Positions 15,721-16,458 are shown, numbered from the stretch's first letter. The stretch is DNA of 64,000 bases from Escherichia coli (GCF_050920415.1 NZ_CP169309.1); one strand, 5' to 3'. A program made the numbers and translations. Notes: generated by a model from the letters alone, not told the origin.

Positions 15721-16220
15721 TATTCGCTCCCGTTATCGCAAGGTTCCTTTCGGTGGAAGTAATTCCAACCGTTCCACTTCGCCAACTGGTTACCGCTACC
15801 AACAGGCATACGGTTTGGATAACCGGACTTACATTTAGCGGCTTTTGCTCTGTCCATTGCAGACAGTTTGACGAGTCGCTCTTTCCCGTATCTGGCAGTG
15901 GTTATAAGTTTTGCAGGCGCTTCCAGCGCATAATCCGGTGCAATGCGGCAGGCAAGGTTGAAAATGACAGCATTGATAGCGTTATTTGATAAACCGTGCT
16001 CATCGCCCGGATCTGGAGCGACATCTGCATCAGCGAAAATGTAGCCAACGTTGATACCAGGTGACACATCACCGCCAAGCCATTCAGCCATCATCATTTC
16101 AAGGTCGTTGACGCCGTCTTCCATAGACTGCGGTTCGACATCGGTTAACGTGGCATTTGATGCCACACCGAGCTTACGTAATGCCGCAAGAACTAAATCA
16201 CCCTTCGTTGTCAGGTTCAT
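15720..16220 (-). CDS. head completion protein, P22 gp4-like
   Basis: ORF 15720..16316; from ATG 16220 reads [47 protein letters not shown]... resembling gp4 (166 aa). Confidence 0.8.
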
Positions 16221-16458
16221 CTGCTGCCGCCTTAGGTTTTCGACCAGGCTTTTTACGCTGTTTTTCTTCTGGCTCTGGCTCTGGCTCTGGCTCTGGCTCT
16301 GGCTCTGGCTCTGCAACGTCCTTCAGAAGGTCATCGGGATGTGCAAACCAACCAGCATCCAGATATTCCTGAATCTCTTCGGCTTTCACGATTTCAAAGT
16401 CGTATCCAACGCCTTTCCATTTCTTCATGTCTCCATGACGAAAGATCATGTGTGTCAT
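16198..16458 (-). CDS. hypothetical 86-aa protein with (EP)7 linker, between coat and gp4
   Basis: ORF 16198..16506; ATG 16458 with SD GGAGA; product [76 protein letters not shown]... Confidence 0.55.
16271..16312. repeat. perfect hexanucleotide tandem repeat (GGCTCT)x7
   Basis: Seven consecutive GGCTCT units; in-frame (EP)n in ORF 16198..16458. Confidence 0.95.

Follow-up and report, generated by a model that had tools for sequence, protein, structure and literature searches.

The closest described relatives of the locus reported here lie in the late regions of P22-like phages. In phage P22 itself, the coat gene is followed by an annotated stem-loop, by the small orf69, and by gene 4, the start of which orf69 overlaps. 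The ORF69 protein of P22 (MKIAIYKPGGSIMVWGVMAQMKVIDSSELPEYVKDGWLDHPSKLLPVEADDVKPRKGRKPKAVSDADKD) consists of an N-terminal domain (N-domain) with the signature E-L-x-E-Y-x-x-G-W-x-x-H-P, a linker, a basic (K/R)GRKPKA motif and an acidic end. In Sf6 (gene 6) and HK620 (hkbT), a small gene likewise fills the slot behind the coat terminator and shares an overlap with the gene 4 homologue. We analysed a 64,000-nucleotide stretch of DNA from Escherichia coli (GCF_050920415.1, NZ_CP169309.1), hereafter the window, in which positions are counted from its first letter and a P22-like prophage carries a small open reading frame (ORF) of 86 codons in this slot. The window ORF shares with P22 orf69 the slot, the overlap with gene 4 and the layout of the protein. 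It differs in its linker, which in P22 is made of seven non-repetitive residues (PVEADDV) without a Glu-Pro (EP) microsatellite; the window protein belongs to an E. coli/Enterobacter branch (phrog_1175), where an EP run that varies in length forms the linker. Sf6 gene 6 and HK620 hkbT have a similar basic end (KRGRKAADNG) that holds the Shine-Dalgarno sequence for the gene 4 product (gp4), but their N-terminal part has no detectable similarity to that of the window protein and they contain no EP run. We report that the EP-coding tract is very probably an in-frame hexanucleotide microsatellite within a real late gene of the E. coli prophage, and that its copy number varies among isolates. Literature searches, including searches with the repeat sequence itself, found no earlier description of this repeat polymorphism.

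The tract and the gene that contains it are located as follows.

16270 to 16311, minus strand: (GAGCCA)7 in codon register, encoding (Glu-Pro)7 as residues 50 to 63 of the small ORF (Tandem Repeats Finder, direct reading of the sequence and its translation, hexamer listing)
16198 to 16458, minus strand: small ORF of 86 codons plus TGA, homologue of phage P22 orf69 (phrog_1175; translation, profile match, BLASTP, conserved position)

Tandem Repeats Finder reported a period-6 array at 16268–16313 with 7.7 copies and 100% matches, and its score of 92 was the highest across the 64-kb window. The units of the (GAGCCA)7 tract stand perfectly head to tail, as expected of a slippage-prone coding microsatellite, or variable number of tandem repeats (VNTR) locus. 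If the 36 bases that match the first unit are taken as the measure, the chance estimate is 4^-36, about 2e-22, per position, and by our own arithmetic a 42-base perfect period-6 tract is expected about 3e-17 times on both strands of 64 kb. The preliminary description of the window had read the array on the plus strand as a perfect (GGCTCT)7 at 16271–16312, which is the same minus-strand tract in another register. It had also read the array as (EP)7 within an 86-residue product, and the minus-strand translation of 16198–16458 indeed has the EP run at residues 50 to 63.

We then examined the locus in other genomes. It was found in 216 of 5426 complete E. coli genomes, and 91 E. coli genomes were sampled for its length. 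In 84 of these, the span differed from that of the window by a multiple of 6, and a length consistent with seven units was seen in 15 of the 84. The implied unit counts ranged from 1 to 33, with a mode at 6–7. Direct reading of complete E. coli genomes gave perfect GAGCCA tracts of 2, 7, 24, 29 and 33 copies, and E. coli LR-50 carried an allele identical to the 7 × GAGCCA of the window. The only case outside the multiples of 6 that was read directly, GPEC1446 (L003), had a 1-bp difference outside the ORF, with the ORF intact. At the protein level, 120 cluster representatives of the homologous proteins measured 75–98 amino acids (aa) in two-residue steps, with 2–12 (E/D)-X dipeptide units between almost invariant flanks. 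These results bear out the earlier proposal that copy number varies in frame among isolates, and demonstrate that it moves in single-hexamer steps, as replication slippage on a perfect tract predicts. They also show that repeat changes outpace point substitutions in the flanks: loci L001 and L002 carry 33 and 29 copies, respectively, with 0 differences in 929 flanking positions, and the window and locus L004 carry 7 and 2 copies with 6 differences in 929.

The composition of the tract records the same process. Variant units encoding ES, EQ, ET, EL and DP are each one base away from GAGCCA, and the variants have themselves been amplified, giving ESESES, EQEQEQ and a duplicated ESEPELEP block, a pattern characteristic of point mutation with subsequent slippage. 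Plaque-forming phages carry tracts of various lengths, with 2 units in Bas106, 5 in Louie (EPESEPESEP), 5 plus EQ in Dewey, and 8 in IME10 and APC_JM3.2. Length variation is therefore compatible with phage viability over the range of 2 to 8 units; tracts of 24 to 33 copies have so far been seen in prophages only. Strains with nearly identical names (H1/H5/H6, AHM8C212RI/AHM8C160RI, 0H23/0H26, and the E. coli W records) agree in length. They are probably sister isolates, and their identical lengths mean that the tract is not hypermutable over very short time scales. Frame-broken alleles were present among the library representatives (P0121, P0122, P0124 and P0126). A phase-variable, on/off contingency locus was considered and rejected, because a unit of six nucleotides (nt) keeps the reading frame. 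On the basis of this pattern, we suggest that the exact length of the spacer matters little, so that slippage would drift nearly neutrally, and that selection would remove frame-breaking changes, since both the downstream tail and translation across the start region of gene 4 would be needed.

The neighbours and signals of the small ORF, and the parts of its product, are as follows.

16503 to 17798, minus strand: P22-type major coat protein gene, the upstream neighbour (Pfam P22_CoatProtein, E 1.6e-165)
16470 to 16497, minus strand: terminator-like GC-rich hairpin with a UUCG loop and then a U run (terminator scan; RNA fold of −21.1 kcal/mol, z −2.8)
16465 to 16468, minus strand: GGAG Shine-Dalgarno sequence of the small ORF, 6 nt before its ATG at 16458–16456 (sequence)
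16312 to 16458, minus strand: N-terminal mini-domain, codons 1–49, a beta-hairpin followed by helices (AlphaFold2, conservation, pN/pS, hhalign)
16201 to 16269, minus strand: C-terminal tail, codons 64–86, a conserved basic motif followed by an acidic end (homologue conservation, AlphaFold2)
16227 to 16234, minus strand: TAAGGCGG, Shine-Dalgarno-like for gene 4, 6 nt before the gp4 ATG (sequence)
15720 to 16220, minus strand: gene 4 homologue, the head-tail adaptor or 'DNA stabilization' protein (Pfam P22_Tail-4, E 5e-58; phrog_637)

The order of coat gene, terminator-like hairpin, small ORF and gene 4 is fixed. The hairpin comes directly after the coat stop codon (TGA, 16505–16503), and both P22 ('putative') and Sf6 ('t coat') have an equivalent stem-loop in their annotation. 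Pfam matches to P22_CoatProtein upstream and P22_Tail-4 downstream agree with the placement between coat and gp4 genes that had been given for the ORF. The slot is conserved on the same strand in the window, P22, Sf6, the metagenomic and genomic loci L006–L010 and the E. coli genomes, and the genes of three distant homologues (37–49% identical) are each flanked by a P22_CoatProtein gene and a P22_Tail-4 gene. The protein matched phrog_1175 at E 1.2e-36, with residues 1–84 aligned to profile positions 1–72 of 72, and P22 ORF69 (NP_059631) by BLASTP at E 9e-9 with 33% identity. A search of 5.8 billion proteins gave 338 homologues. E. coli contributed most of them, with others in Salmonella, Shigella, E. 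albertii, E. fergusonii, Enterobacter and Leclercia. When the first 50 residues served as the query, an exhaustive search reached remoter members of 72–79 aa that kept the three-part layout. Six residues (G9, G16, G36, W37, H40 and P41) are invariant throughout the family.

In comparison with the distant homologues, the proportion of nonsynonymous differences (pN) in the N-domain was 0.22–0.40, and that of synonymous differences (pS) was 0.53–1.0. Synonymous sites were saturated in two of the three comparisons; the ratio of substitution rates (dN/dS) was therefore given up and the statement limited to pN<pS. Since pN lies well below pS, the comparison indicates purifying selection on the N-domain. 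A GGAG element similar to that of the window also precedes the homologues in P22 and L009. Judged by the phrog_1175 match, the near-invariant flanks, synteny, pN<pS and the Shine-Dalgarno sequence, the small ORF is a genuine gene; that it might be a spurious frame was ruled out by conservation and synteny. The preliminary description had treated it as anonymous and proposed looking for it in P22-like genomes. As a minor correction, the ORF is the homologue of P22 orf69; its EP repeat, however, is missing from P22. Neither an invariant repeat count nor absence of the ORF from relatives, the two outcomes named there as speaking against the proposal, was found. In agreement with that description, the papers and database entries that could be reached assign the ORF no function, and all 102 phage records with relatives of P22 orf69 label them hypothetical or unknown.

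The 3' end of the small ORF is interlocked with gene 4. The gp4 ATG lies at 16220–16218 and the small ORF runs 20 nt beyond it, giving a 23-nt overlap. The Shine-Dalgarno-like TAAGGCGG sits within Pro-Lys-Ala codons of the small ORF (CCT AAG GCG G), so that at 16227–16234 the same bases (CCTAAGGCGG) serve as codons and as a near-consensus Shine-Dalgarno sequence for gene 4. An AAGG(C/T)GG element likewise precedes the gene 4 start in P22 and Sf6. This part of the conserved tail motif is therefore under constraint at the nucleotide level. The overlap of the two genes is also present in L006 and L008; in L009 the small ORF stops 17 nt ahead of gp4, with no overlap. Translation of the small ORF across the gp4 initiation region probably sets or modulates the level of gp4 synthesis.

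AlphaFold2 modelled the N-domain as strands at residues 2–14 and 17–25 and helices at 26–34 and 42–49. The small fold over residues 1–45 was confident, with a predicted local distance difference test (pLDDT) score of about 87–91 at residues 1–40. Residues 50–86, comprising the EP run and the tail, had pLDDT of 49–59 and no secondary structure, from which we infer that the EP spacer is a disordered or extended tether. The tail is near-invariant in close homologues. Its motif takes the forms KKPG(R/P)KPKA, PRKGRKPKA in P22, and KRRGRPPKA in the homologue P0132, and KKPGRKPKA is conserved even outside the portion that overlaps the gp4 signals. The acidic end of the tail is the start of gp4 in another reading frame. 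One E. coli homologue (P0010) carries a 13-residue tandem duplication at the end of the N-domain, directly before the EP run.

Searches with the N-domain revealed a further likeness. Its strand-helix-GW part resembled repeat modules of GIY-YIG/HNH endonuclease-like proteins (hhalign probability 96.5%, E 9e-10, over 22 columns), and phmmer against 1.8 billion proteins gave E values of 1e-6 to 4e-4 for such proteins. The module consensus reads x-I-N-x-x-G-x-x-K-x-V-x-x-x-E-L-Q-x-Y-L-x-x-G-W-x-x-G, and nuclease domains were confirmed in the proteins that carry it. Six of these (P0130, P0133, P0134 and P0136–P0138) are GIY-YIG/HNH endonuclease-like proteins with 4–6 tandem modules of about 37 aa, for which we found no Pfam model and no solved structure. 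Compared with them, the window protein has a single copy of the module, a longer hairpin and a net acidic charge. It is not itself a GIY-YIG/HNH homing endonuclease, since Pfam detected no nuclease domain and the similarity is confined to the module. We treat the likeness as shared ancestry or a shared fold, and not as evidence for DNA binding.

Sequence searches of Pfam, NCBIfam and PDB with the 86-aa protein returned only low-complexity matches (procyclin PARP, TonB, SPESP1 and ETS), and fold matches in BFVD were confined to small uncharacterised phage proteins. From gene position and protein layout, we tentatively favour the reading that the small-ORF protein plays an accessory part in head assembly or DNA packaging, being neither essential nor structural, although we hold even this to be doubtful. 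The N-domain would dock on a phage partner, the EP run would act as an acidic tether of free length, and the basic tail would contact DNA. In phage lambda, gpFI is described as an assembly chaperone that is proposed to bind the prohead lattice and to aid docking of the terminase–DNA complex by non-specific DNA binding (PMC4856287). The small ORF shares the gene-order position of lambda FI, between the genes for the major capsid protein and the head-tail adaptor. As far as we know, the P22 late amber collections cover genes 3, 2, 1, 8, 5, 4, 10, 26, 7, 20, 16 and 9 and hold no mutant in orf69, which suggests that the gene is dispensable in the laboratory.

Several observations weigh against an accessory factor of this kind. 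The protein shows no sequence or fold similarity to gpFI in Pfam (E<=1), PDB or Foldseek, and Foldseek of the AlphaFold2 model against PDB gave nothing below E 2. The papers and proteomic records that could be reached contain nothing to show that the product is made or what its role is. By our own count the N-domain carries a net negative charge, in a protein that is strongly acidic as a whole, and this argues against DNA binding by that domain. The tail is not a canonical AT-hook (PF02178): where the AT-hook core is RGRP, the tail has GRKP or GPKP, and no AT_hook match was obtained at E<=1. Many relatives have G-P-K-P, without the arginine, at this core, and P0132 alone, with its canonical RGRP core, gave an AT_hook match, at a sub-threshold 14 bits against a cut-off of 17.4. 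Part of the tail conservation may be explained by the overlapping gp4 initiation region, not by protein function. Nearly identical coat and gp4 genes occur with unrelated N-domain cassettes, a finding that counts against tight co-evolution of N-domain and coat. The near-neutrality of spacer length is drawn from the range of alleles. Finally, with the portal and terminase genes of this prophage frameshifted (see below), the window gene may escape selection altogether.

The cassettes became apparent from a long form of the gene, of about 190–200 aa, which occupies the same slot in other E. coli prophages and in ST64T-type Salmonella phages. It consists of an N-domain about 30% identical to that of the window, a WDGH domain (PF25311, E 1.4e-39), (EP)1–4 and an identical tail. 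The ST64T Orf-186 type (phrog_3769) thus shares with the window gene the slot, a related N-domain, an EP run and the identical basic tail, but has a WDGH domain of about 100 aa, absent from the window gene, inserted between N-domain and EP run. WDGH-bearing variants were proteins P0158–P0207, P0232 and P0259; the domain had no fold match in PDB, and P0259 combines it in one fusion protein with a Tad2-like Thoeris anti-defence domain and a crAss001_48 domain. When the window was aligned with WDGH-type loci of E. coli strains 44 and M6 (L013 and L014), DNA identity was 96.5% from the coat gene to 16464. There, 6 nt before the ATG of the small ORF, similarity stopped, and none was seen until the EP tract, inside which (at 16295 or 16283) identity of 97–98% restarted and continued onward. 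The N-domain cassette, with or without WDGH, has therefore been swapped as a unit, and by this alignment the EP-coding repeat is the right-hand joint of the exchanged cassette. It is conceivable, but quite unlikely, that genes of the orf69 family are modular carriers in which the EP repeat is both a free-length tether and a joint for payload exchange, and that the slot is an accessory or counter-defence locus. The N-domain and basic tail would then tether the carrier to phage DNA or to the maturing head, WDGH would be one of the payloads, the product of the slot might be packaged together with the DNA and delivered with it, and the window would carry the short, payload-free version.

Other explanations of the repeat and its gene have to be weighed against an accessory protein with a freely drifting spacer. 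The EP run could be a rigid acidic rod or ruler, placed between the N-domain and the basic tail, whose length is functionally tuned. Slippage would then provide variants for selection, in the manner of a contingency locus that alters length instead of turning a gene on and off. An acidic proline-rich stretch is indeed kept across genera, as (EP)4 in the Enterobacter and Leclercia homologues, PEPEPE runs recur in the long-form proteins, E or D is retained at the first position of variant units, and the composition is like that of the (EP)n/(KP)n spacer of TonB, with weak NCBIfam TonB matches at E 0.03–0.06. We nevertheless consider tuning unlikely. The range of 1–33 units has no clear optimum beyond its broad mode, viable phages tolerate 2–8 units, and P22 orf69 manages with seven non-repeat residues. 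Moreover, the second position of the unit is free among P, S, Q, T and L, the last four being single-base neighbours of CCA, a pattern that resembles mutation plus slippage more than selection for proline. Alternatively, the small ORF might mainly be a translated leader that couples or throttles gp4 downstream of the coat terminator, with little function for the peptide. The overlap and the embedded gp4 Shine-Dalgarno sequence, conserved in P22 and Sf6, fit such a role, as do the recurrence of the overlap in L006 and L008 and the fact that Sf6 gene 6 has only the tail region in common with the family. It is nonetheless improbable that this is the main role, given that the N-domain protein is conserved despite saturated synonymous sites, with invariant G, W, H and P residues and a confident AlphaFold2 fold, that KKPGR upstream of the Shine-Dalgarno sequence is conserved although it lies outside the gp4 signals, and that the ORF of L009 does not overlap gp4 at all.

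Two further explanations would dismiss the gene or the repeat. In the window, no stop codon interrupts the gp4 frame for 34 codons before its ATG, through the repeat and back to a TTG at 16316, and the records of phages IME10, Dewey and Louie annotate such an extension and omit the small ORF. The repeat would then encode Ser-Gln as part of an N-terminal extension of gp4, and the small ORF would be spurious. This is scarcely credible, and an extension or frameshift fusion was rejected, as the gp4 frame is closed 1–2 codons before the ATG in P22, L008 and L009. The Pfam P22_Tail-4 match begins at the ATG, the EP frame has a conserved protein family with its own Shine-Dalgarno sequence, and in E. 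coli genomes the NCBI Prokaryotic Genome Annotation Pipeline (PGAP) lists the small ORF as a separate feature. The seven-copy count, or the repeat itself, might instead be an assembly artefact of the window; its portal gene is broken by one frameshift and its large terminase gene by two, which could reflect indel errors. We regard this as very unlikely: the identical allele exists in E. coli LR-50, seven units are among the commonest lengths in the sampled genomes, homopolymer-type errors neither gain nor lose whole hexamers, and the ORF is intact.

Several other features of the prophage and its annotation were observed. The portal gene (18720–20889, minus strand) is frameshifted near 19198–19214, where residues 1–565 of a related portal protein align in one frame and residues 560–727 in another, and the gene for the large terminase subunit (20890–22400, minus strand) spans three frames, implying two frameshifts. 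These suggest that the prophage is either decaying or imperfectly assembled. An imperfect period-6/24 array of AGAAGC-like units (60–65% matches) lies at 36632–36721 on the plus strand in a 326-codon ORF (36108–37088) of the prophage early region, and encodes a charged stretch of the EAEAKAKAE type, probably a coiled coil. The host flank ybhJ/ybhI (46028–49905) is 100% identical to that of E. coli MFDS1022581, which has ordinary chromosomal genes and no prophage at the site matching the prophage of the window. As for annotation of the locus, the phage records of IME10 (L016), Dewey (L017) and Louie (L019) omit the small ORF and extend gp4 through the repeat in the Ser-Gln frame, and PGAP marks the intact small ORF of E. 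coli ECONIH6 (L002, 29 copies) as an incomplete pseudogene. The locus thus flags annotation errors in three phage records and one PGAP pseudogene call, and shows that gene length is unstable here. The small gene keeps its fixed slot in all P22-like phages examined, P22 included, and has stayed uncharacterised through decades of work on P22 assembly. Its natural variants, with 1–33 units, short and WDGH forms and an embedded gp4 ribosome-binding site, provide a ready set for functional tests.

Beyond the P22-like phages, other known systems resemble the locus in part. The spacer of TonB, (Glu-Pro)n followed by (Lys-Pro)m, is likewise an acidic X-Pro run that leads into a basic, proline-containing stretch and serves as a linker joining two functional ends. 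In TonB, however, the EP/KP stretch alone aligns, at 13–14 bits against cut-offs of 265–315, and the two are not homologous; the window protein has no TonB domains or membrane anchor, and its biological context differs. In lambda, the gene order is E-FI-FII, and gpFI consists of two ends joined by a flexible linker. The likeness here is to a small non-structural late protein encoded between the major capsid and head-tail adaptor genes. A further parallel concerns the repeat. In-frame hexanucleotide VNTRs in enterobacterial genes and prophages serve for strain typing by multiple-locus VNTR analysis (MLVA). Like the tract in the window, they are perfect 6-bp repeats within ORFs that vary between strains without shifting the frame, and the present repeat could similarly act as a typing marker for strains or prophages. 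Compared with the MLVA-type loci, 1–33 copies is a wide range for a 6-bp coding repeat. The tract is a fresh example of a feature type that is already known, the in-frame coding VNTR within a disordered linker.

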